A DNA stretch of 58,932 bases from Chiloscyllium plagiosum (lineage: Eukaryota). Location of the stretch: contig NC_057739.1 of assembly GCF_004010195.1 (NCBI RefSeq), forward strand, positions 34,798,129 to 34,857,060, given 5' to 3'. How positions within the stretch are numbered: position 1 is the stretch's first letter; every line of letters begins with the position of its first letter. Position numbers and translations under genes: made by a program. Positions 7,145 through 58,932 of this stretch are shown here, piece by piece. The notes below the pieces were generated by a model that worked only from the letters and a program-made list of their open reading frames with translations, was not told the origin of the DNA and did no database searches.

Positions 7145-7492
7145 GAGACTGCTTATTACAAGGGTTGGGAAATTAGGATTTCTGATGTAACAGATCATGT
7201 GGCTACTTTCACCATTTTTTTGTGATTAGTGTTAAAAAGATCACTAAAGGCTTTGTGAACAAATTAGGAATTTATGACTTTGCTTAAAATCAAAATTTAC
7301 TTGTTCATTTGTATAAGAGTGAATTTATTTATTATTGAGAAATTCTCTCTCTAAAGATGCCAAAATCTTATTGTTTAAGAAATAGCAAATCTAAAATATG
7401 GAAAGGAGGACAAAATGGAGAATATTCAAAATCCTGAAGTCATGATGATAACATTGAGCCTATCCTCCTGTGATCTGCATTCAGTTACAAAA

Positions 7493-7714
7493 GGGGAGAA
7501 AGTGAGGACTGCAGATGCTGGAGATCAGAGCTGAAAATGTGTTGCTGGAAAAGCGCAGCAGGTCAGGCAGCATCCAAGGAGCAGGAGAATCGACGTTTTG
7601 GGCATAAGCCCTTCTTCAGACCATTCCTGAAGAAGGGCTCATGCCCGAAACGTCGATTCTCCTGCTCCTTGGATGCTGCCTGACCTGCTGCGCTTTTCCA
7701 GCAAAACATTTTCA
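7493..7714. mobile_element. PLE-derived palindromic mini-element with hammerhead ribozyme
   Basis: 88-bp inverted arms 7532-7619/7627-7714 (about 3 mismatches); 14-bp TSD ATTCAGTTACAAAA (7479-7492, 7715-7728). Confidence 0.88.
7622..7660 (+). ncRNA. Minimal type I hammerhead ribozyme motif (intact core)
   Basis: CTGAAGA-A-GGGC(TCAT)GCCC-GAAAC-GTC; predicted cleavage after C7654. Confidence 0.7.
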
Positions 7715-7776
7715 ATTCAGTTACAAAACCAAGGATAGTGCAAAAGTATTCCCTACTTAGGATTTGAAGAATTAAT

Positions 7777-8089: not shown

Positions 8090-9000
8090 GCTGAAAGGGG
8101 AAAATTGGCTATGGTGCATTGGGAAACTATGTTAAAGGGTATGACAGGAGCCAACCAATGGCTAACATTTAAAGAACTAATACTTAGTATGTAACAAAAG
8201 TACAATTCATTTAATTCAAAGAAAATTCAGCAAGAAAAGTGTTCCAATTGTGGCTAACAAAAGAAATCAAGGATTGTATCAGATCAATGGAAAAGTTTAA
8301 ATAAAGTTGCTCAAAAAAGTAAGATTAGATTACATTACAGTGTGGAAACAGGCCCTTCGGCCCAACAAGACCACACCGACCCGCCGAAGCGCAATCCACC
8401 CATACCTCTACATTTACCCCTTACCTAACATTACGGGCAATTTAGCTTGGCCAATTCACCTTACCTGCACATCTTTGGACTGTGGGAGGAAACCAGAGCA
8501 CCCGGAGGAAACCCATGCAGACACGGGGAGAACGTGCAAACTCCACACAGTTAGTCGCCTGAGGCGGGAATTGAACCCGGGTCTCTGGCGCTGTGAGGCA
8601 GCAGTGCTAACCACTGTGCCACCATGCCGCCCACAGTCAGGATGTTTTTAGAATTCTGAAAAGAAAGACCAAATTAAAACTATCAAAAGGAAGAGAGAAT
8701 AAGAGTAAACCAGCTAGAAATATAAAAACGATGTATATAAGTTTCTATAGTTATGATGAAAAGGTACAGATTAGCAAAACAAACATGGATCAGGAGACCT
8801 TATAATAGGGAATAAAGAAACAGCAGCTAATACTTTGTGTTAGTTCTTATACAGGAAGATATGATTTTAAAAACTCCTAGAAATAATGTAGAATTTAGAG
8901 ATTGAGTGGAAATGAGGACTTGTTAGATATTAATATTGGTAGACAGGTGGTACTAGAGAAATTATTGAGACGTAAAGTGGATAAATCGCCTGGACCCGAT
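8090..9000 (+). mobile_element. Old CR1-like LINE fragment interrupted by an HE1 SINE
   Basis: Decayed ORF2-like sequence ending in the DKSPGPDG motif (gataaatcgcctggacccgatgg). Confidence 0.6.
8322..8634 (-). mobile_element. HE1-type tRNA-derived V-SINE, full length
   Basis: Reverse complement of the 50479-50815 copy; A/B boxes, V-domain, CR1-type tail with TAATC repeats. Confidence 0.92.
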
Positions 9001-11049: not shown

Positions 11050-11640
11050 CTAAAATAAAACAAAGAACTGTGGATGCTGGAAGTCCAAAACAAAAACAAA
11101 AATTGCTGGAGAAAGTCAGCAGGTCTGGCAGTGTCTGTGGAGAAAAAACAATTAACATTTCAGGTCTGGTGACCCTTCTTGAGAACTGATAGTAGCTGGT
11201 AAACTTTAGAACTGATAGGAAAAGCTGGTATAGACCCCAGAGGGACAGAAAAGAAAATCAGGCAGACAAAGGGATTAATAATAGTAAGCCATAGTGAAAG
11301 AAGATATGTTAATGGGGACCATAAGTACGTGAAAAACGGGTTGGCTGTGGTGAAAGCAGCCCATATGATGAGGGCATAGGGTATGGTGTTGTGTGAAAGC
11401 TTTCATGTCCTAACATTATTGAACTTTATTATTAACTTTTGAAGGCCACATGATTCCCAAGCAGAAAATGAGATGCTGTTCATCCAACTTACACCAGGGC
11501 AGGCCAAAGACAGAAATGTTGGTGAGGGAACACAATGTTGTGTTGAAGTAGGAGACTGGAAATGCGGGGTCATTTTTGCAGACAGATGTAAGGGTTCGGC
11601 AAAGTGGATGCCCAGTCTGGGTTTCATCTCCCCAATGTGA
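11050..11640 (-). mobile_element. Old Penelope-like element 3' fragment
   Basis: gatgctgg...agcaggtctggcag end motif; decayed GIY-YIG C-terminus (EQHLIFCLG). Confidence 0.65.
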
Positions 11641-16689: not shown

Positions 16690-17985
16690 AGAGGGTGGTG
16701 CTGAGTGACTGGGATAAGGAGGTGGGAGGGGAAATGAAGAAACTGGTGAAATCCACGTTGATCCCGTATGGTTGCAGGGTCCCAAGGCAGAAGATGAGGC
16801 ATTCTTCCTCCAGGCATTGGGTGGTTAGTGTTTGGCAATGGAGGAGGCCCAGGACCTGTATGTCCTTGGTGGAGTGGGAGGGGGAGATAAAGTGTTCAGT
16901 CACAGAGCGGTGGGGTTAGTTGGTGCGGGTGTCCCTGTGGTGTTCTCTGAAACAGTCAGCAAGTTGGCATCCTGATTACCTGATGTAGAGGAGACCACAA
17001 GGGGTGCAATGGATACAGTAGATGACATTTGTGGAGGTACAGGTAAATTTCTGTCTGATGTGGAAAGATCCTTTGGGGCCTTGGATGGAACTGAGGGGGA
17101 GGTGTGAGCGCAGGTTTTGCACTTCCTGCGGTGGCAGGGGAAGGTGCTGGGAGCGGGGGTGAGGGCTGGTCGGGAGCATGGATCTGACGAGGGATTTGCA
17201 AATGGAATGATCTCTCCGGAACACTGATAGGGGTGGGGAGAGAAATATATCCCCAATGGTGGGGTCTGTTTGTAAGTTGCGGAAGTGGCGGAGGATGATG
17301 TGATGTGTATGGAAGGGGTGGAAGATGAGGATAGGAGGGTTCTGTTCTTGTTGCATTTGGAAGGATGGGGATGCGCGCAGTGGGGAAGATGCGCTGGAAG
17401 ACATTGTCAACCACGTGGGAGGGGAAATTGCGGTCTTTGAAAAAGGAGGTCGTCTGGGATTTTCTATGATGGAATTGGTCATTCTGGGAACAGTAGCAGC
17501 AGAGGCTACTGTTGGGAATAAGGGATTGGCATTTTTACAGGAGGCAGGGTGGTAGGAGGTGTAATCCAGGTAGCTGTGAGAGTCGGTGGGCTTTTAGTAG
17601 ATCTGTGGTTAGTCGGTCACTGTGATGGAGATGCAGAAGTGCAGGAACAGGAGGGGAGGTGTCAGAGTTGGTCCAAGTGAATTTGAGGTCGGGGTGAAAG
17701 GTATTAGTGAAGTTGATGAACTGTTCAACCTCCTTGTGGGAGCACGAGGGAGCGTCGAAACAGTCATCAACATAGCGGAGGAAAAGGTGGGGGATAGTGC
17801 CGGTGAAGCTGCGGAAGATGGACTGTTCCATGTACCTGACAAAGAGACAGGCATAGCTGGGACCATCCGGATGCCCATGGCACCCCTTTAGTTTGGAGGA
17901 AGTGGGAGGATTGGAAGGAGAAATTGTTAAGGGTTAGGACCAGTTCAGCCAGGCAGATGAGTGTCAGTGGAAGGGTACTGGTTGG
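16690..17985 (-). mobile_element. Penelope-like element (Neptune type), frameshifted
   Basis: FLRYVDDCF RT motif, FHPDLKFT, Cys linker PCHRRKCKTC, GIY-YIG region NVIYCIHCTPCGLLYI. Confidence 0.9.
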
Positions 17986-20529: not shown

Positions 20530-21124
20530 GTAAAAACAATGACTGCAGATGCTGGAAACCAGATTCTGGTCCAATGGTGCTGGAAAAGCACAGCAGTTCA
20601 GACAGCATCGAGGAGCTTCAGCAAAATCGACATTTCGGGCAAAAGCCCTTCATCAGGAATAAAGGCAGAGAGCCTGAAGCGTGGAGAGATAAGCTAGGGG
20701 GGGGTGGGGGTGGGGAGAGAGTAGCATAGAGTACAATGGGTGAGTGGGGGAGGAGATGAAGGTGATAGGTCAGGGAGGAGAAGATGGAGTGGATAGGTGG
20801 AAAAGGAGCTAGGTAGGTTGGACAAGTCCGGACAAGTCAAGGGGACTGGAAGTTTGAAACTAGGATGAGGTGGGGGAAGGGGAAATGAGGAAGCTGTTGA
20901 AGTCCCTCTCCTCCCTGACCTATCACCTTCATCTCCTCCCCAACTCACCCATTGTACTCTATGCTACGCTCTCCCCACCCCCACCCTCCCCTAGCTTATC
21001 TCTCCACGCTTCAGGCTCTCTGCCTTTATTCCTGATGAAGGGCTTTTGCCCGAAACGTCGATTTTGCTGAAGGTCCTCTATGCTGTCTGAACTGCTGTGC
21101 TCTTCCAGCACCATTGATCCAGAA
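20530..21124. mobile_element. PLE-derived fold-back element (about 215-bp arms) with hammerhead
   Basis: Inverted arms about 20564-20780/20904-21124; AGTCATTTG on both flanks (20521-20529, 21128-21136). Confidence 0.85.
21027..21065 (+). ncRNA. Minimal type I hammerhead ribozyme motif (intact core)
   Basis: CTGATGA-A-GGGC(TTTT)GCCC-GAAAC-GTC at 21032-21059. Confidence 0.72.
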
Positions 21125-27130: not shown

Positions 27131-27258
27131 CTTGGATGGAGCACAGCTGAAGACAATATCAGCCTGCAATAATTACTATAAAATTCAAAAAGTTTTTCAT
27201 TACTCTTGTCATCTGACATTTGGATGTTCCATTGGAGTCTGGACAGAAACCATAGAAC

Positions 27259-27385
27259 AGGAGAATCGACGTTTCGGGCATGAGCGTCGATTCTCCTGCT
27301 CCTTGAATGCTGCCTGACCTGCTGCACTTTTCCAGCAACACATTTTCAGCTCTGATCTCCAGCATCTGCAGTCCTCACTTTCTCC
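27259..27385 (+). mobile_element. 127-bp PLE-derived mini-element with short inverted 5' part
   Basis: 15-bp TSD CAGAAACCATAGAAC (27244-27258, 27386-27400); same 3' end as the 7493 and 34205 elements. Confidence 0.85.
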
Positions 27386-27401
27386 CAGAAACCATAGAAC
27401 T

Positions 27402-27765: not shown

Positions 27766-28356
27766 AACAGGAAATAACTGTCCAACCTAGTCCTGCTGAT
27801 TATACAGATGTGTAAAATATTCAAATGAAATTTTGAGAGTTTTTGTATGTAGAATTGATGGACTTACAAAAGGAATAAGGAATTGGTAGGTTTTGCTGTT
27901 TGTTGGTTTCATTCACCATCTTAATATAATTCTACATTAGAGATCTATTTCATCATGACATTTTCCTCTGCTGGACTTGGAAATGTGTGCAACTGTGTGA
28001 CAAAATATTTTGAATGATCCTGTTGCAAATGCGTAAAAGAATCTCTCGATAATTTGCTAAGGGAGGAAAAAAGTAATTGAACTTTTGTATCATGCAAATA
28101 CTTGTTTGGTTCAGACAATTTTTTTTTCCCCGTTTTTAGCAATAAGAAGAGAACAATCAAAGAGGCAGCAGCATGATGTGATATTTACTACAAAAGGCGG
28201 AAGCAGGGCGACAACACAAAGAAAGAAACATTCTCTGACGTCATTGAAAGCTCTCTTCCAGAGACTGCTACCATAGAAACTGACCAAGAGGTGCTTATCC
28301 CAGTTTAGCAGAGTCAGGTATACAGAAGCAGAAGAAAAAGATTGAAAAAATCTTCC

Positions 28357-29442
28357 AAGACTGTTACAATGGACACGGAACAAAATTTAAACACTCAATT
28401 GTATGTAGGTAATAGTGAAAAGAAACATAAGAAAAAGAAAGGATATTCTGCTTTGTTGTCGAAGTATGATAATTTGGAGACTGTTACAGTAGACACAAAA
28501 CACGACTTAAGCGATTTTCTGTGTGTAGGTAACAGCAAAAAGAAACAGAAAAGAAAGAAAAACCATTCTGCATCATTAGAGGGCTGTGATAGTTCAGAGA
28601 TACATACAGTGGACAGTGAACAAGACATAAAAAATCTCCTGTTTGTAGATAACAGTGAAAAGAAACATAAGAAGAAAAAGGATTGTTCTGCTTTGTTATT
28701 GGGGTATGATCATCTCGAGACTGTTCCAGCAGACGTTGAACAAGACTTAAACCATTTCACATCTGTAGGTAATAGCGGAAAAAAAAGGAAGAAAAAGAAA
28801 GACTGTTCTGCATCATTAACGGGCTGTGACAGTTCAGAGATACATACAGTGGACAGTGATCGAGACATAAACAATCTTCTGTTTGTAGGTAAAAGTGCAA
28901 AGAAACATCAGATAAAGCATTTTTCTGATTTATCATCAGGATATGATAATGTAGAGACTGTTACAGCAGAGAATGAACAAGACTTAAACCATTTCACATC
29001 TGTAAGTAATAGCGGAAAAAAACGGAAGGAAAAGAGAGGCCATTCTGCATCATTAGGGGGCAGTAACAGTTCAGAGATGCATGCAGTGGACAGTGAACAA
29101 GGCTTAAACAATATCCTGTTTGTCGATAATAGTGAACAGAAACATAAGAAGAAAAAAGATTGTTCTGCTTTGTTATTGGGCTATGATAATCTTGAGACTG
29201 TTCCAGCAGACACTGAACAGAACTTAAACCATTTCATGTCCATAGGTAATAGCGGAAAGAAACAGAAGAAAAAGAAAGATGCTTCTGCGTCATTGGGGGG
29301 ATGTGATAGTTCAGAGATACACACAGTGGACAGTGATCAAGACATAAACAATCTCCTGCTTGTAGATAATTGCGAAAAGGAATGGAAGCATCAGAAAAAT
29401 AAGAGGCGCAATTCTAAATTGGGAAATAAAGATGATGACTCA
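28357..29442 (+). repeat. TTF1: Coding tandem repeat: 9 units of 120 bp (40 aa) alternating A/B (240-bp higher-order), degenerate units to about 29718
   Basis: ETVxxDxEQDLNHF..GNSGKKxKKKK..SASLxGCDSS alternates with EIHTVDSEQDIxNLLFVDNSEKKHKKKKDCSALLLGYDxL. Confidence 0.95.
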
Positions 29443-30871
29443 GATATGCAAAACCCCTGCAAATCTGATCTTGGTGAAAATAAACTACAGGGGAAGAAGA
29501 AAAAATATGCCGTAGCATTAGAACCATGTGATGTTTCAGAGACTGTTTTGGTTGATGATCAAGACTTACAAATTTTCCAGCTTCCACAGAGTAATAAAAA
29601 CAAACTGAAGAAAAGGAAAAAAGACAGAAACAGTTCAATATTCAGTGAAGAATGCGACAGTTCAGATATGCAAAATCTTCAGTTAGGAGGTAATGGTGAG
29701 AAAAGAAAAAAAAATCATCTTTGTGGGTCACTGATAACGGAGGCTACAACGCACATGAGCTCTACAGAGATGAAGAAAGAGGGTCAACATTCTGAGTTGA
29801 TGGGTAATCAAGGAAACCAAATGAATAAACTAATACATCATTCCTACTCAGGTGAGACTGGTGTTTCAGTCTCTGCGGTAAAGACTAAACAAATACTGCA
29901 AAATGCCGGATTAGTGGAAAATGGTGATAATGAAAGAGACCCCCATGTCACGGCAGTAAAAACTGCTAAAGAGATTACAACAAAAGAGACCCCGCACACA
30001 ATACGGAATCCTGAGTTACTGACTAAAAGCAAGTGTCATTCCCATCGAACAGAAGAAAGAGTTAGGAAAAACTATTGTAAATCAGCAGAAGGTAGTGACG
30101 ATTTGGAGACTTGTGCAGAGGCTCATCTAGAAAGTGCAATATCAGCATATGTTGGTGTTGATACAGAAACATCAACCAAAAAATGCAAAAGGAGAAAAAA
30201 GAAAATGCAGTTTGAGAACATAAACAGAGATGTCCCCCCCAGTGGATCTGAAATTCCTCAAAAGCCTATCAAGCAATGTAAAATAAGCAACATTTTGTCA
30301 TTTGGAAATTATAGTGCAGACTTACTGGGAATAAATAATAAATCTTTCCAGAAACCTAAATTAAGTTGCAATGGAAGTGAAAATGTAGAGAAAGAAGCAA
30401 AAGTACCTTCCAAGGCTGTGAATATTAGTGGCGTTGCAGCAATCACTGGAGAGCAGATTGAGCAAATAGTGCATGATTCTAGCACCACTTGTGAAGAAAC
30501 TGTTAAAACCTCCAAGAACTACATACAAAAGAGAGGCCGTCCACTTGGATGTAAGAATTCTGGCAGACCCAAAAAATTGACGCAGGATGGAACTACACAG
30601 TCTCCTGCAACTTTAAGAAGACAGAAAAATAAACAGCCACAGCAGCGTATGACAGAACTTAATAATAATGCTAGCATCACAACTGTTGAGAACTTTAAGT
30701 TGGAGGAAGTGCCTGTTTGTCAAGATAAAGCTAAATGTAGTCAGATGGACAAATCAAAATTGACTGAGCTGCTTAAGGACTATATCCCTAATGTGGAAAA
30801 GCTGACAAATGATACGCTGTATAGCATATATAAATATGACCTTCCAAGGTTTCAAAAGTTTAAAGCTGAAG
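28369..30871 (+). CDS. TTF1: TTF1 coding exon 1 (exon probably starts at 28140); repeat-rich N-terminal region
   Basis: 2.5-kb open frame; strong Kozak acaATGG; ends LLKDYIPNV..YKYDLPRFQKFKAEG (recalled human DDLERFKEFKAQG) at GAA G|GTAAG; acceptor ttttttccccgtttttag at 28139. Confidence 0.9.
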
Positions 30872-32629
30872 GTAAGACTAATCACAGAACTATTGCTTTA
30901 TTCACTTAGCAATACCAAGATTTATTGCTGAACAATTTGTTGGATAATCTTAGTCTTTCAGTTATAAAGTTCTGGTTCAATATATTGTGGAAACCGAGAT
31001 TATTTAACATTATATGGGGAGGTATTGATGTTCTGAAATGTTAAACAAATGCTTAAAGAGTTCGCAATCAAAGTTATTCAACATCTTCATAGGGCAGATT
31101 TCCTCTGGTGTTGTCATTGCCTGCTGGAGACTTTTTATAAGAATGGTTGTTATGGCAAGCATCTTTCCAAGGGAAATTAATTATTCTCCTCAGAAACACA
31201 CTAGGATAAGTATAAGCAGTGTTCTTCAATTGTGTTTCTAACTTTTTAGGGACAGTTGGATGGGATTATTTGGAGAAGGGGATTCTGGAATAAGGTGACA
31301 TTAAAGAAGGAGGTTTTGGGGTCTGATAAAATTTGGAAATTCCAAGAGAACAATCCAACAGTTTGTGAAAAATATAAAGAATCCTGCGATTTGAATGTGA
31401 GGAGCAGTGGTGAAATGGATAGGAGAGGGGGGCAGGGGGAGTTGGAGTTTGGAAGAGAGTCCTCCAAAGGGAATGAGTGCCTTAAATGGAAATTTTGTCA
31501 GATTTAAAAAGTGGAAGCTGTCATTGTTGTGAAGGAATTGAAGATTCAGTATAACATTTATGGCAGAGGCTGGGAGACCAATGGAATGTGCCAATTAATG
31601 TTTGTACTCAAGATATTTATTTGTTCTCAATAATACTTGTGTTCAGGAGCTTAGTGTTCATAAAGCAATAATCAATGTTAATGAATCTTGCAATATGACT
31701 TCCACCCTTCTCGGCTGTTTATGGCCTGCCTGATTGGAATGCTGCGCTTAAACAGCAGTTTTCCACCATTTAATTGTAAGGATGGGTGGACTATGTGTAA
31801 TTCCCTGGATATTTTTAGAAACCACTGTATGAGTGCGTAAGTTTGTACCTCTTTTTGTGAAGGTGGAACAAGGTTAACAGTGTGTTTGGTGTGCACAGAG
31901 CAGCTGCCTTGGAGATCCTGGGTGAGCTGTTTATACCGCACCATATAGAAACATGTTGTCAAATAGGAGGATGGATGAGTCAAATTCCATTCTGCTTTAA
32001 ATGATAACAAACAATATTTATATTTTTAATGACATTTTTAAATATCTCAATTGTTCGCTTGGTATTGTTTAATTGTTAATGTTTTGCTCACCAGCTTATC
32101 TAGTGCCATCATTTAGAAAGTTGTGAAAAGTGGAGTTTGAAGGGGATGAATTATTTTAAAGAATTACACCTTGAGGATTGTGACTGCAGAAATAATTTTT
32201 ACCATTTGTAGGATTTCTCTGTACATTACTAAAGATATTTGGTAAATAATCTATAATTGCCCATCAATTATTACCTCTGAATTAGAAGGAACATTATGTA
32301 TTACTTTGAGACATCCTTCCTTCCTAAACAAGCGGATAAAATGCATTTGACCATACTGTATTCCATCCTTATGCACTGTAATGAAGTGTCTGTCTAGATT
32401 TCCTAGCCCACAGTAGATCATAAACTTGGAATGTTCAACGCTATGGTGAGATGTACCAGCTTAAATAAACAGACTTGTGATTATTCCCAACCTGCTTTAA
32501 ATTAGACTCCATTAATTTCTTCACTGTGCTACCATCCTGCACTGAGGCAATATTCTATTTATCTATTAAAGTCAATCAAGAATACTCTGCTGTGACAGTT
32601 CAAATTAGGTGGTCAGATATTTATGCTCA

Positions 32630-34013: not shown

Positions 34014-34204
34014 GTATTTCTATAGGTCTAATTTCATTTTTATGCCTATATTATTGTATATATTAGCAGTGGATATGTCTCATTTTTGAGGTTTGCAGCA
34101 TCTGACAACCATCTCGTCCAGGTACTTATACTGATTGCACTCCTTTTATACCTGTTGAGCAATAGTTATTTACAAATCTTCTTGTTGCTGCCAGTAATAT
34201 CTTA

Positions 34205-34416
34205 GCTGAAAATGTGTTGCTGGAAAAGCGCAGCAGGTCAGGCAGCATCCAAGGAACAGGAGAATCGACGTTTCGGGCATAAGCCCTTCTTCAGGAATGA
34301 AGGGCTTATGCCCGAAACATTGATTCTCCTGTTCCTTGGATGCTGCCTGACATGCTGCGCTTTTCCAGCAACACATTTTCAGCTCTGACCTCCTGCATCT
34401 GCAGCCCTCACTTTCT
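34205..34416. mobile_element. PLE-derived palindromic mini-element with hammerhead
   Basis: 86-bp inverted arms 34204-34289/34299-34384; TSD CTGCCAGTAATATCTTA (34188-34204, 34417-34433). Confidence 0.88.
34261..34298 (-). ncRNA. Minimal type I hammerhead ribozyme motif (intact core)
   Basis: - strand CTGAAGA-A-GGGC(TTAT)GCCC-GAAAC-GTC at 34294-34267. Confidence 0.7.
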
Positions 34417-34500
34417 CTGCCAGTAATATCTTACTCAATTTCACTTCCCTTACTTGCATTCAAAATTAATTTTATATATTTGAAAATTTCCTTTTTATAG

Positions 34501-41899: not shown

Positions 41900-42395
41900 C
41901 AGGACCGACCAGACCTCCCAGTCACCGTTCATTTCAATTCCCCCAACCACTCCCTTTCTGACATGACCATCCTTGGCCTTCTCCATTGCCAAAACAGACC
42001 ACAGCGCCTTTTGGAGGAACAGCAGAGGGTGCCTTATCTTTTGACTGGGCACCCTTCAGCCTGGAGGACTCCACATTGTGTTCTCCAATTTCAAATAACC
42101 TCCTTCCCCACCTTCCGACTCTCTTCATTCTTTCCTCCTCCCTTCCACCAACCGGATTCATTTCTCCCATTGACTAACCAGATTGCATCTTCTGCCTAAC
42201 TTCACCTATCCCCACTTCACCACCCTGCCCCGCCTCCCCCTTTATCTGCAGCTCTCCCCACTCCCACTCCCAGTCTTGGAGAAGGGTTACACCCAAAACG
42301 TTGACTTCTGCACCTCCTGATAGTGTCTGGCTTGCTGTGTTCTTCCAGACTTCTGCCTGTCTCCTTTGGATTCCAGCATCTGCAGTTGTTTTCTC
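41900..42395 (+). mobile_element. Neptune-type PLE 3' fragment with degenerate hammerhead
   Basis: VHFNSPNHSLSDMTILGLLHC; gaagggttacacccaaaacgtt; end ccagcatctgcagttg. Confidence 0.75.
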
Positions 42396-47206: not shown

Positions 47207-47630
47207 TAAATAAAACACGTCTGGCTTCTCTGAAACTACACTGAAATCTAAGACTTATAGTTTGAAACTGCTCTTTATATTGTTGGATTCAAAATTTTTA
47301 ATATATATAACTGGTAAACGTGGGAGTCATTATCCTTACTCTTATTGCTCTCCTGTAAGCTTTGGCTTTTTTTTAATTCTCCTGGAACATGGATGTTGTT
47401 GGCTGTGCCAGCAGTTATTAAATAAAACACGTCTGGCTTCTCTGAAACTACACTGAAATCTAAGACTTATAGTTTGAAACTGCTCTTTATATTGTTGGAT
47501 TCAAAATTTTTAATATATATAACTGGTAAATGTGGGAGTCATTATCCTTACTCTTATTGCTCTCCTGTAAGCTTTGGCTTTTTTTTAATTCTCATGGAAC
47601 ATGGATGTTGCTGGCTGTGCCAGCAGTTAT
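47207..47630. repeat. Near-perfect 212-bp tandem duplication
   Basis: 47207-47418 versus 47419-47630; 3 substitutions seen. Confidence 0.95.
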
Positions 47631-48450
47631 TGCACAACTCTAGTCGCCCTTGAGAAGATGGTGATGAGCCACATTTTTGAACCATTGCATATAGACCTAT
47701 AATGCCATTAGGGAGGGCATTCTAGAATTTTGACCCAGTGATAATGAAGGGGCAGCAATACTTTTCCAAGTCAGGATAATGAGTGGAAGGGTTTGGAGGT
47801 GGTAAAGATGGTGATGTTCCCATGTATCTACCAACCCGTCCTTCCAGATAGAAGTGGTTGTGGCCTTGGTAGGTGCTGCCGAAAGAACTTTGGCAAATCT
47901 TTGTAGTGCATCCTGTAGATAGTATATACTGCTGATACTGAGCATCAGTCATAAAGGGAATGGGTGCACTGCTAATCAAATGGGCTGCTTTATCCTGAAT
48001 CAGTGTTGTTGGAGCTGCACCCATCCAGTCAAGTGGAGAGTATTCCATCACACACCTGACTTGTGCCTTGTAGATGATGAACAGGTGTTGGGGAGGCAAA
48101 AGGGGCTAGATTAGAATAGTGCTTTAAAAGCACAGCAGGTGAGGCAGCATCCGAGGAACATGAAAATCGACGTTTCGGGCAAAAGCCCGTTCAACAGGAA
48201 TGAAGGCAGGTATCCTCCGGGGTGGAGAGATAAATGGAAGAGGGGTGGGGGTGGGGAGAAGGTAACCGAGAGTACAATGTGGGGATGAAGGTGATAGGTC
48301 AGAGAGGAGGGTGGAGCGGTGTTAGGGAGTCAGGAGTAAATTACTTTCTGCAGTATTCCTAACTCTGACCTGCTGTTGCGGCCATAGTATTGATATGGTG
48401 TGTCCGGTTTAGTTTCTGTTCAAAAATAACTCCCAGAATATTATGATGTG
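47580..48450 (-). mobile_element. CR1/L2-group LINE, continuing at about 51005-51510 after a PLE insertion; contains a PLE end fragment at 48105-48320
   Basis: IYKAQVRCVMEYSP..IQDKAAHLI C-terminal motif; collinear with other family copies on both sides of the insert. Confidence 0.75.
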
Positions 48451-50438
48451 GGGCTGGCAGTGTTAGAATGGGGTGAACAAAGTTAAAAATCACACGACAC
48501 TAGGTTATAGTCCAACAGGTTTGTTTGGAAGTACAAGCTTTTGGAGCGCTGCTCCTTCATCACGTAGCTAGTGGAGCACGATCATAGGAAGCAGAATTTA
48601 TAGTAAAAGATCAAAGTGTCATACAACTGATGCTATGTTTTGAACAAACCAAGATTGCTGTTAAGTCTTTAATCACTTCGAATGGGTTGCAGGTTTTGAT
48701 TTATGAATATGTAAATCCCAGAACTTCTTTCAACTCGCGTTCCTGATATAACTTAAGGTTTTATGTTTTAAAAAAGTGACATCTCAGCTCAGGCAACACA
48801 TTAAAGGTGTACGGTTAGTCTGTCTGCATCCCAACCTTGAGTTAGACCAGTTCTGTTTCCAAAGTAGGAAATTATAAAATATCACATGGACTGACTGCCT
48901 ACAGATTGTGTGCCCAAATATGCCAAATTTTTCATGCACAAGTCCAAACAAGAATACTTAGCTGCACAGGACCTCCAGCCAACACTATACACCAGATATA
49001 TTTACGACATTTTCTTCCTCTGGATCCATGGCGAGGAGTCACTGAAACAAGTACACAATGATATCAACAAGTTTCATCCCACTATCAGACTTACCATGCA
49101 CTGCTCTTCAGAATCAGTTTCATTCTTAGATACATACATCTCCATGAAGGATAGGTACCTAAGTACCTCACTGTATTGCAAGCCCAAGGATAACCTCAGA
49201 ATGCTGCACTTCACAAGGTTATACTCTAAACATATTAAAACAGACATCCCCTACGGACAAGCCCTGTGCATACACAGGATCTGTTCAGATAAGGAAGAAT
49301 GCAAAGGGCGCCTGAAGGTGCTGAAGGATGCCCTCGGAAGAACAGAATACGATGGTCAACTCATTAATCGAGAAACCACAATGAACTCCTCAGGAAACAG
49401 ACATGGGATATGACTGATAGGGTACCTTTGTTGTCCAATGCTTCCTGAGAACAGAGAAACTACCTCTTTGCAGCCTGAAACACATGATTGATGAGGATGA
49501 GCACCTCGTCAAGATCTCCCCTACGCCTCCACTTCTTGCATTTAAACCAACGCCAAACCTTGAACAGACCATTGTTTGCAGCAAACTGCCCAGCCTTCAG
49601 GACAACATCAACCATAATACCATACCATCCTGTCATGCCAACCACTGCATTTCGTCAGAATGTCGAAATTAAAACTACCATGATACGTGGGGACACCACC
49701 CACCATGTGCGTGGCAGGTACCCATGTGACTCTGCCAATGTTGTCTACCTCATACGCTGCAGGCAAGGATGCCCCAAGGCATGGTACGTTGGCAAGACCA
49801 AGCAGACACTATGACAGTGGATGAATAGACCCCGCACAAAAAAAAGTATTCCCTCCCAGTTGGGGAACACTTCAGCAGTCAAAGACATTTGGCATCTGAT
49901 CTTCAGGTGACCATCCTCCAAGATGAACTTTGGGATATGCAACAACAGAGTCGCTGAGTAAAGACACCCATGAGGATGGCCTCAATTAGGACCCACTACA
50001 CTGCACACGCTTTTACACACGATCACACTCACACAGATCCTCTCTCTTAAACACACAGACACACACACACACGCTCTCACTGACGCACACCCCCTCTCAG
50101 GCATATACTCTGTCACACTCGCGCGCTCACACAGATGCACACGACTGCTCCCTCTGTCCACCGTACACACACACACACGCGCGCGCGCTCTCACTCCCTC
50201 ACACGCATGAACATACACACAAGACTATGGGGTGACTTTACATTTGCAAATTTGTATTTATAAATTCCTACTTTGGAAATAGAACCGGTCTGACTCAAGG
50301 TTGGAATACAGACAGAGTCTAACCTCACACCTTTAATGCATTGTATGAGCTGAGATGTCATCTTTCTTGTATAAAACCTTAAGTTATCGCGGGAATGTGA
50401 CTTGAAAGAAGTTCTAGGGTTTACATATTGATGAACCG

Positions 50439-50478
50439 AAGCCTGTAATCCATTAAAGACTTAATGGATTACAGGCTT
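50439..50478. repeat. Perfect 18-bp inverted repeat with 4-nt loop at the SINE 5' junction
   Basis: AAGCCTGTAATCCATTAA-AGAC-TTAATGGATTACAGGCTT. Confidence 0.95.
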
Positions 50479-50815
50479 GTGGGCGGCACGGTGGCACAGT
50501 GGTTAGCACTGCTGCCTCGCAGCGCCAGAGACCCGGGTTCAATTCCCGACTCAGGCGACTGACTGTGTGGAGTTTGCACGTTCTCCCCGTGTCTGCGTGG
50601 GTTTCCTCCGGGTGCTCCGGTTTCCTCCCACAGTCCAAAGATGTGCAGGTTAGGTGAATTGGCCATACTAAATTGCCCGTAGTGTTAGGTAAGGGGTAAA
50701 TGTAGGGGTATGGGTGGGTTTCGCTTCGGCGGGTCGGTGTGGACTTGTTGGGCCGAAGGGCCTGTTTCCACACTGTAATCTAATCTAATCTAATCTAATC
50801 TAATCTAATCTAATC
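50479..50815 (+). mobile_element. HE1-type tRNA-derived V-SINE, full length, young, (TAATC)n tail
   Basis: A box tggcacagtgg, B box ggttcaattcc, V-domain tgtggagtttgcacgttctccccgtgtctgcgtgggtttcctccgggtgctccggtttcctcccaca, CR1-like tail; CpGs intact. Confidence 0.95.
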
Positions 50816-55361: not shown

Positions 55362-56987
55362 TTGAGGACTGCAGATGCTGGAAACCAGAGTTTAGATCAG
55401 AGTGGTGCTGGAAACACACAGCAGGTCATGCAGCATCCAAGTAGCAGGAAAATCGACGTTTTGGGCAAAAGCCCTTCATCAGGAATAGAGCCAGGCAGCC
55501 TCCAGGGTGGAGAGATAAATGGAGGGGTGGGGAGGGGGATGCTGGGGAAAAGGTAGCAAACAGTACAATAGGTGAATGGATGAGGGAGCGATGGTGGAGG
55601 AGGCCCAGGACCTGCATGTCCTCAGCAGAGTGGGAGGGAGAGTTGAAATGTTGGGCCACGGGGCGGTGGGGTTGATTGTTGCGGGTGGCCCGGAGATGTT
55701 CCCTGAAGCGCTCTGCGAGGGGGCGTCCAGTCTCCCCAACGTAGAGGAGACCGCATCGGGAGCAGTGGATACAATAAATGATATTGCTGGATGTGCAGAT
55801 GAAACTTTGATGGATGTGGAAGGCTTCTTTGGGGCCTTGGTGGTGAGGAAGGAGCTGTGGGTGCAGGTTTTGCAATTCCTGTGGTGGCAGGGCAGGGTGC
55901 CAGGATCGGAGGATGGTGTGTTGGGGGGGCATAGACTTGACCAGGTAGTCATGGAGGGAATGGTCTTTGTGGAAAGGGGTGGGAGGGAAATATATCTCTG
56001 GCGGCGGGGTCCGTTTGGAGGTGGTGGAAATGTCGGCGGATGATGCAGTTTATGTGAAGGTTGGTGGGGTGGAAAGTGAGGACCAGGGGGGTTCTGTCCT
56101 GTTATGGTTGGAGGGGTGGGGTTTGAGGGTGGAGGTGCGGGATGTGAATGAGAGGGCATCTTCAACCACGTGAGAAGAGAAATTGCGATCCTTAAAGAAG
56201 GAGGCCATCTGGTGTGTTCTGTGGTGGAACTGGTCTTCCTGGGAGCAGATACGGCGGAGACGGAGGAATTGGAAATGCAAGATGGTATTTTTGCAGGAGG
56301 TAGGGTGGGAAGAGGTGTAGTCCAGGTAGCTGTGGGAGTCGGAGGGTTTGTAAAAATTTCAATGTTAAGTTGGTCGTCATTAATGGAGAGGGAGAGGTCC
56401 AAGAAGGGGAGGGAGGTGTCAGAGATGGTCCAAGTGAATTTAAGGTCGGGGTGGAATGTGTTGGTGAAGTTGATGAACTGCTCAACCGCCTTGTGGGAGC
56501 ACGAGGTGGTACCGATACAGTCATCAATGTAGCGGAGGAAGAGATAGTGAGTGGTGCCGGTGTAACCACGGAAGATGGACTGTTCTATGTAGCCGACAAA
56601 GAGACAGGCACAGCTGAGGCCCATGGCTACCCCTTTGGTCTGGAGGAAGTGGGAGGATTCGAAGGAGAAATTGTTAAGTGTGAGGACAAGTTCAGCCAAA
56701 CGAATGTACTGAAAAAATTCTCCAAGATGCCTACAGCACCACCTTCCAAACCCACGACCACTACCAGCTCAAGGACAGGGACAGCAGAGACATAAGAACA
56801 GCACATTCTGCAAGTTCCGTACCAAGCCACTCACCATGCTGATGTGGGAATACCAGTGGAAGGGTATTGTTGGGGACGTCAGGACAGGAAGAAACGGAGG
56901 GCTTGGAGGCCCTGGTCATGTCAAATGGAGGTGTAGAGGGATTAGATATCCATGGTGAAGATGAGGCGTTGGGGGCTGGGAAAACGG
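55362..56987 (-). mobile_element. Neptune-type Penelope-like element, frameshifted
   Basis: QTKGVAMG, FLRYIDDCIG, LPFLD, PCHHRNCKTC, NIIYCIHCSRCGLLYVGETGR..RFREH. Confidence 0.92.
56705..56853. repeat. 149-bp inverted copy of 57565-57713 inserted into the PLE
   Basis: Reverse-complement match with about 2 mismatches. Confidence 0.92.
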
Positions 56988-57399: not shown

Positions 57400-57960
57400 G
57401 TTCATTTGTGGGTTGTGGGCACTGCTGTCATATTGTCCAACTTTAGTTGTCTTTGAGAAGGTGGTGAGCTAGATCCCATAGACCAATTGCTATTAGTAAC
57501 CACACAATGCCATTAGGGAGAGAATTTCAGGATTTTGAACTGGTGATACTGAAGGAATGGTGATGTATTCCCACATCAGCATGGTGAGTGGCTTGGTAGG
57601 GAACTTGCAGAATGTGCTGTTCTTATGTCTCTGCTGTCCCTGTCCTTGAGCTGGTAGTGGTCGTGGGTTTGGAAGGTGGTGCTGTAGGCATCTTGGAGAA
57701 TTTCTTCAGTACAAATTGTAGATTATATACTTTGCTGCCGAGAGTCGGGGTGAAGGGAATGAATGTTTGTGGATGTGATGGTATTAAGTTTCTCGAATAT
57801 TGTTCGAGGTGCACTCACGCGGGCAGGTTGGGAGTGTTTCAACCTAGACCTGTGCCTTGTAGATGGTGCACAGGATTGGGGCAGTCAGGAGGTGAATTAT
57901 TTGGTGCAGTATTTCTACCTTCTGACCTGCCCTTGCAGCTACAGTACTATGTGTGCTGGG
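57400..57960 (-). mobile_element. Old CR1/L2-group LINE 3' fragment
   Basis: Same tail family as 47580-48100. Confidence 0.65.
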
Positions 57961-58552: not shown

Positions 58553-58932
58553 TGTCCACCAGATGGCCTCCTCCTTTAGAGACCGCAATTTCCCTTCCCA
58601 CGTGGTTAAAGATGCTCTCCAACGCATCTCGTCCACATCCCGCATCTCCCCCCTCAGACCCCACTCCTCCAACCGTAACAAGGACAGAACGCCCCTGGTG
58701 CTCACCTTCCACCCTACCAACCTTCGCATAAACCAAATCATCTGCCGACATTTCTGCCACCTCCAAAAAGACCCCACCACCAGGGATATATTTCCCTCCC
58801 CACCCCTTTCCGCCTCCGTGACTACCTGGTCAGGTCCACGCCCCCCTACAACCCACCCTCCCTCTCACCCTGGCACCTTCCCCTGCCACCGCCGGAACTG
58901 CAAAACCTGCGCCCACACCTCCTCCCTCAACT
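58553..58932 (+). mobile_element. Neptune-type PLE fragment running off the window
   Basis: Similar to the reverse complement of 55840-56215; PCHRRNCKTC linker. Confidence 0.85.

Follow-up and report, generated by a model that had tools for sequence, protein, structure and literature searches.

Three small head-to-head insertions in a 58,932-nucleotide stretch of the shark Chiloscyllium plagiosum genome (the window; contig NC_057739.1, positions 34,798,129 to 34,857,060) are copies of a short unit identified by sequence as the pLTR of a PLE. Their best explanation, with a probability of roughly 0.6 on sequence evidence, is twin target-primed reverse transcription that starts at two internal sites and runs off the 5′ end of a capped RNA. 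We further think, at slightly better than even odds, that PLEs insert in this way with each nick using one internal start site and that, since both sites would also lie a short way inside the mRNA 5′ end, what forms most often in this genome is a strong-stop-like product, two cDNAs that both end at the cap.

The insertions and their parent element

An earlier note on this DNA had described the three insertions (E1, E2 and E3) as head-to-head arms flanked by TSDs, and this is confirmed here with re-mapped arm coordinates (Table 1) and TSDs of 14, 15 and 15–17 bp; that of E3 is exact over 17 bp, two of which possibly belong to the element. Unit positions are numbered from the last C of the common 3′ end (0), negative values lying upstream, as mapped on a natural copy (L006). 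The arms are separated by a 2-nt spacer in E1, overlap by 1 nt in E2 and by 2 nt in E3, and are 97% complementary in both E1 and E3. As the same architecture recurs genome-wide, it is not due to chance. The note had also placed the turn-around point at or inside a hammerhead core. All three insertions do turn within or at the edge of the motif, each at a different base, but the core is still complete in just two arms, the short ones of E1 (plus strand, from 7627) and E3 (minus strand, from 34294), and in neither arm of E2.

Table 1. Insertions of the unit and of sister families in the window (positions are those of the window).
Feature	Positions	Strand	Remarks
E1 left TSD	7479–7492		14 bp, exact match to 7715–7728
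E1 long arm	7496–7619	−	pLTR −124 to 0, including 3′ tail; hammerhead G12 position mutated
E1 short arm	7622–7714	+	pLTR −129 to −36, without tail
E1 minimal type I hammerhead motif	7623–7658	+	motif scan; fits features in PMC4209133; cleavage predicted
E1 right TSD	7715–7728		exact match to left TSD
older sister-family head-to-head insertion	20541–21113		224-nt arms running into 3′ UTR
E2 left TSD	27244–27258		15 bp
E2 inverted arm	27259–27285	−	−114 to −87; includes 14 nt missing from E2 long arm
E2 long arm	27285–27385	+	−100 to 0; no complete hammerhead core
E2 right TSD	27386–27400		15 bp
E3 left TSD	34188–34204		15–17 bp
E3 short arm	34205–34300	−	−130 to −34; intact hammerhead core
E3 long arm	34299–34416	+	−119 to −1; without CUGA
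E3 right TSD	34417–34433		15–17 bp
older sister-family PLE copy	55363–56986	−	pLTR plus broken GIY-YIG and RT coding; blastn; tblastn 54–74% identity

The remainder of the window carries repeats of several kinds. Decayed fragments of sister-family PLEs lie at 16706–17983 (minus), 48120–49401 and 58560–58928 (plus), 41903–42386 (plus) and 11428–11619 (minus), and the RT region of the sister PLE copy at 55363–56986 is interrupted by the left arm of a 149-nt inverted pair (56705–56853 and 57565–57713; 99% complementary, 711 nt apart). An inverted 314-nt repeat (8322–8635 and 50478–50791; 95% identical) beside a (TAATC)n tract is probably a young dispersed repeat, and a near-perfect 212-bp tandem duplication at 47207–47631 is either recent or an assembly artefact. 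Outside these repeats, an open frame of 866 codons (28309–30906, plus) that is rich in lysine and serine, contains a 120-nt repeat in about 8.5 copies and has no Pfam match is probably a host exon, and an H/ACA snoRNA resembling SNORA11 (31886–32014, plus) scores 47.9 bits, above the Rfam gathering score.

Across the 3.56 Gb of genome searched, the last 28 bases of the unit have 46,703 exact matches. The earlier note had proposed looking for a PLE with this same 3′ end, and such copies exist: at four loci (L006, L125, L128 and L132) the end is joined to GIY-YIG and RT frames, the order ahead of it in longer copies being RT frame, CX4CxxC linker, GIY-YIG frame and 3′ UTR. Pfam matches are weak (GIY-YIG at E 3e-4 and RVT_1 at E 0.0045, both below the curated cut-offs), but there are 81 longer homologous proteins with E values of 1e-30 or better, the majority annotated with RVT_1 and some with GIY-YIG. 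The linker is found in the frames of L128, L132 and L125; a CX2-5CxxC linker between RT and EN is a feature of Neptune and Nematis (PMC8557442), and the parent PLE, judged by its frames, is probably of this type. At L066/L141 and L163 the common 3′ end instead leads into the ORF start, through a pLTR-to-ORF junction that has 176 exact matches and places the ATG at +38. Because the same end thus both terminates RT/GIY-YIG copies and precedes the ORF, the unit is, by its sequence context, the pLTR of an endonuclease-containing PLE. No intact full-length parent copy was recovered among the copies examined. At two loci, L066 and L110, ORF sequence is flanked by the unit at either end, as a partial pLTR tandem. 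The second of these, a 729-nt insertion on the minus strand, holds an inverted arm, a pLTR, 339 nt of ORF start and a second pLTR within one TSD-like repeat, a layout that looks like a template jump from a run-off cDNA to another RNA and hence like a route to partial tandems.

The inverted arm and one-sided tail are also seen in a 2.9-kb insertion (L132). An inverted, 5′-truncated pLTR, a tail of 30–40 bp on one end and a TSD have been described for PLEs (PMC8557442, PMC3846280); the architecture and the element class are already known, and the inverted pLTR, the one-sided tail of about 33 nt and the TSD are not new.

Copies of the unit were sampled in two ways, mostly from one contig. First, a main sample selected for the long 3′ end was drawn from the first 100 matches listed on contig C1 together with near matches; parsing of the fetched DNA gave 148 ends (99 exact, 49 near), or 145 insertions once three mirror duplicates had been dropped. 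Second, 80 loci (83 arms) were selected for a 5′ end at −128. For end rates, 42 of the 145 insertions with less than 90% identity were left out, giving an end-hazard set of 103 insertions and 158 arms (12 censored), and setting aside nine N-censored insertions left 94 uncensored ones for counts of farthest reach. A first similarity search was biased to copies of at least 119 nt, and its loci were included in the tallies of junction bases, motifs, haplotypes and junction classes and left out of the breakpoint and TSD statistics. An inverted arm is present in 71 of the 145 insertions, most of its outer ends lying at −26 to −38. A TSD is found at the parsed boundary in 55 insertions, with a length of 11–21 bp (13–16 bp in 43 of the 55; mode 14–15).

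The 5′ limit of the copies and the hammerhead motif

The ends of the arms cluster at the 5′ edge of the hammerhead motif, 20–35 bases upstream of the predicted cut. Of the 158 arms, 99 end at −115 to −134; per base at risk this amounts to 0.063, compared with 0.002–0.007 in all other intervals out to −578. The farthest reach of the 94 uncensored insertions tells the same story, with 73 in this zone, 15 beyond it and six shorter, and 54 of the 55 TSD-consistent insertions reach −117 to −134, although this last set omits long insertions with an unplaced left end and so overstates the short class (the end-hazard set includes them). Counts of 20-mers in the genome are 80,754 at −119, a figure inflated by sister families, 18,660 at −137 and 20,448 at −162. 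The ends are spread over 20 nt and do not fall on one base. ORF-bearing copies that could be scored (19 of 30) stop in the −115 to −134 zone in eight cases, run past −134 in four and stop short in seven; the other 11 were left unscored (nine matches start inside ORF-side sequence, one copy is without a pLTR and one is masked). The earlier note had foreseen breakpoints enriched at the ribozyme rather than spread uniformly, which holds good with the enrichment at its 5′ edge, and its template of roughly 130 nt is likewise supported, since about 130 nt separate the 5′ end from the long 3′ end.

Within the unit the motif has its CUGA at −124, its GAAA at −104 and a predicted cut between −97 and −96. 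In E1, helix I pairs 7623–7626 with 7655–7658, helix II spans 7635–7646 and the predicted cut follows 7654. Compared with the minimal type I hammerheads of metazoan PLEs (PMC4209133), it has the core boxes, the extra base between 9 and 10.1, G10.1–C11.1, the palindromic 15.2–16.2 and a short helix I. A motif scan gave 323 matches in the fetched DNA and two in the reversed control. Covariation in helix II is slight (five A–T against 302 G–C at one pair), an Rfam scan of the window returned six weak matches with the hammerhead family not among them, folding of the unit gave a stability not above that of shuffles (z about 0), and the predicted minimum-energy fold of the monomer is not a hammerhead. 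Folding also predicted a small stem-loop at about −134 to −117.

The mobilised RNA of the earlier note is headed by a ribozyme, whose cleavage could make its 5′ end. Arm ends are slightly raised near the cut site (nine ends, 0.007 per base), but none of the 94 farthest reaches falls at −91 to −100, and hammerhead cleavage is therefore not supported as the source of the 5′ end. The hammerhead would rather be carried along a little 3′ of the start site, left uncut in the template.

Within the zone of 5′ ends, the bases around −128 (A7623 in E1) fit the general initiator consensus with the A as +1. Internal promoters of initiator type have been reported in the pLTRs of other PLEs (PMC2377424, PMC3846280). 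The reference base before this A is C, and a non-C base occurs there 12,699 times in the genome versus 2,984 times before T−130. Tallied by eye over the first 100 matches listed for each, the preceding base is G in 58 at −128 versus 18 at −130 (Fisher p 7e-9; p 0.005 for G versus A only, the −130 control being inflated in T by a C-to-T change in long copies), and a script count on fetched loci found G before −128 in 47 of 83. Single-arm copies with a TSD have the G in 14 of 18 cases, two of these copies having near-identical flanks, and in four single-arm copies (L176, L190, L195 and L213) a G lies between TSD and element, versus one such A. Gap-free hairpin junctions have it in 12 of 21, and part of the excess can stem from microhomology with the partner arm or the target; a first, smaller sample gave a marginal excess (11 of 20 versus 40 of 111 elsewhere, p 0.04). 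In work on L1, an untemplated 5′ G was attributed to copying of the cap (PMC9341517), and the G excess at −128 suggests the same, as would be expected from copying an RNA cap. A capped transcript would thus start at the initiator-like A−128.

Two raw-read RNA runs were matched by species label only; four read runs were aligned on one copy (L147), of which one gave nothing. No start pile is listed at −128 and the reads mostly run into unrelated flanks, the runs being probably from other species and of uncertain 5′ fidelity. A splice acceptor at the −128 boundary was considered and rejected, because the preceding base is C rather than the end of an AG and the junction contexts have no common upstream exon.

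Two 3′ ends, joined arms and the readings they allow

Single-arm copies (n = 36) have their 3′ end at 0 in 14 cases and near −33 in 22, so that each of the two positions serves independently as the 3′ end of an insertion. The 47 hairpin rows, in which three hairpins are counted from both sides, comprise 34 that combine the long and the short end, nine with the long and some other end, four with two long ends and none with two short ends. The earlier note had suggested that each insertion makes a fresh palindrome, and indeed 129 hairpins fall into 107 junction classes, 97 of them seen once, with the ten repeated classes all being overlaps of 1–13 bases. The inverted arm reaches farther 5′ in 38 of the 71 hairpins compared, the long arm in 24, and the two are equal in nine. 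Subfamily alleles are shared between arms in 33 of 35 cases at −111 (59% expected) and in 41 of 49 at −86 (53% expected), which fits one template or closely related templates; at CpG sites agreement between arms is near chance. Two minor classes of ends were also noted: outer ends of inverted arms at about −71 to −88 (12 of 71, E2 at 27259 included), and a third class of 3′ ends, located at +65 to +76 on the ORF side in half of the 30 ORF-linked loci (15; L145–L170), which may reflect either a minor RT start or the end of a short RNA.

Twin priming with run-off at the cap would produce these copies as follows. The PLE endonuclease would make staggered nicks 14–15 bp apart, each of which would prime a cDNA at one of two internal sites (0 or −33) in the 5′-terminal pLTR of a capped transcript starting at the initiator-like A−128. 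Both cDNAs would run off the RNA 5′ end after 95–128 nt, in some cases adding a G by copying the cap, and their ends would join head to head through 0–13 nt of microhomology, one arm often being trimmed. Priming at one nick only would leave a single-arm stub, and priming in the 3′ pLTR would give the rarer long copies. In vitro, the lizard PLE PAc cleaves both strands and extends them, and its RT begins at two internal sites, one on either side of the tail, independently of hammerhead cleavage (PMC11167929). It is the two 3′ ends, the asymmetry of the arms, the variety of junctions and these in vitro data together that favour twin priming; against a start and run-off at this point stands the predicted hairpin at about −134 to −117, which could cause stalling or fold-back.

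The rival that survives best, though we consider it unlikely, keeps the twin-priming chemistry and changes the template, a short RNA made from solo stubs, which would then be a SINE-like non-autonomous family mobilised in trans. Stubs are far more numerous than long copies, and many of them, beginning at the initiator-like A or close to it, might retain an internal promoter like that of Drosophila Penelope (PMC2377424); pLTRs can act in trans (PMC3846280), and the 3′ end at +65 to +76 could mark where such an RNA ends. Yet there is no sign of a stub-only lineage, the common haplotypes of 158 tiny copies being also present in 31 3′-UTR-linked or 20 ORF-linked copies (a weak argument, as four sites give low resolution); the sequence that follows the 3′ end is often the same as the beginning of the subfamilies' ORF-side sequence, and ORF-bearing copies have the same 5′ limit. 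For its part, the separate non-autonomous retrozyme family proposed in the earlier note is not supported, given these shared haplotypes, the common limit of the ORF copies and the parsed sample, in which no tandem monomers were noted.

Less likely again is snap-back, the route to the palindrome that the earlier note preferred, here taken as a single cDNA that folds back where a hairpin lies close to the ribozyme's 5′ edge, with off-centre opening and capture of the second strand at −33. The stem-loop predicted in the zone of 5′ ends, the mostly shared alleles of the two arms and a set of recurrent junctions at −125 to −130 all suit it, and self-priming has been proposed for PLE palindromes (PMC3846280). 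However, a self-copying cDNA cannot yield an inverted arm that reaches farther 5′ than its partner, as in 38 of 71 hairpins and also in E2 and E3, without a later deletion, and this extra step would be needed each time. Further, single-arm copies, which have no inversion, share this 5′ zone and the G and have their 3′ end at 0 or at the second site near −33, and some junctions carry untemplated or re-copied inserts. Snap-back is thus disfavoured by the extra sequence of the inverted arm, by the fixed second outer end and by the single-arm copies that end there.

Very improbable is a retrozyme, in which self-cleavage by the hammerhead would supply a small linear or circular RNA as template. The motif in the unit is well formed, and animal retrozymes derive from pLTRs (bioRxiv 10.64898/2026.07.22.740005), but the copies span the cut site intact, head-to-tail monomer arrays were not noted among the 145 parsed insertions, and hammerhead mutants left PAc insertion in vitro unaffected (PMC11167929). 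A genuine MITE, or a hairpin of fixed form that transposes whole, has a negligible chance and is refuted as the main route by variable junctions, asymmetric termini and TSDs of 11–21 bp, mostly 13–16 bp, in place of symmetric fixed TIRs, constant size and a short constant TSD, so that the earlier note was right to see a PLE-derived retroelement that is not a MITE; its one point in favour is an odd junction with an 8-nt insert, which is found at two loci 114 kb apart (L059 and L063; C1:1800959 and C1:1914773) and has two copies genome-wide. These two loci may represent local re-copying of a whole hairpin.

Comparison with known systems

For the inverted pLTRs and one-sided tails of PLEs, self-priming has been proposed (PMC3846280), and two RT starts have been observed in vitro (PMC11167929); the statistics offered by tens of thousands of stubs in this genome favour a pair of primed cDNAs and an RNA with a capped end. 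If twin priming to the cap is correct, one mechanism would account for pLTR inversion and the one-sided tail as well as for the abundance of minimal hammerheads scattered through animal genomes, and the transcription start sites of PLE families could be read from genomic junctions alone. Such hairpins also risk being annotated as MITEs, as microRNA precursors (through weak Rfam matches) or as retrozymes. We found no account of cap-terminated twin stubs in the PLE literature searched, which lay mostly outside subscription journals, Repbase and Dfam.

The shark element resembles Pen2a and other EN+ PLEs of Adineta vaga, as far as these are described in PMC3846280 and the overview PMC8557442, in having RT followed by GIY-YIG and a hammerhead in the pLTR, in the head-to-head inverted copy at the 5′ side with a tail on one end and a TSD, and in a pLTR that overlaps or abuts the ORF start. 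In contrast to the Adineta elements, most shark insertions are without ORF or 3′ UTR and stop in the 20-nt zone, and their TSDs have a mode of 14–15 bp, compared with 8–10 bp there (PMC3846280). Self-priming on an antisense template was proposed for Adineta (PMC3846280), whereas the shark copies favour two primed cDNAs.

Closer in mechanism is Poseidon PAc of Anolis carolinensis, which likewise uses two RNA-internal RT start sites about one tail length apart, cuts and extends both strands, and can dispense with hammerhead cleavage (PMC11167929). In PAc the hammerhead contains the beginning of the ORF, and RT starts at sites within that ORF (PMC11167929), whereas here the ATG lies 38 nt past the long end, and the shark frames differ further in carrying the CX4CxxC linker of Neptune/Nematis type. 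The portion of the PAc study available to us neither explains the inverted copy nor reports run-off at the RNA 5′ end (PMC11167929).

Non-LTR retrozymes are also non-coding and pLTR-derived, with a type I hammerhead motif and a need for PLE protein, but by definition they form head-to-tail tandems in which every unit has its own hammerhead (bioRxiv 10.64898/2026.07.22.740005). The shark copies are instead dispersed, single or head-to-head, with individual TSDs and often incomplete ribozymes. Neither retrozyme-type tandem monomers with complete hammerheads, of which none occur in the three window copies, nor farthest 5′ ends at the ribozyme cut site were seen in our samples.

Short cDNAs that run off the 5′ end of an RNA are familiar as retroviral strong-stop DNA, and in L1 twin priming, priming on the second strand gives an inversion whose two pieces do not overlap. 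The shark insertions differ from L1 in that their arms are overlapping copies of a single 5′ segment, begun at two fixed sites, and resemble it in the extra 5′ G attributed to the cap (PMC9341517).
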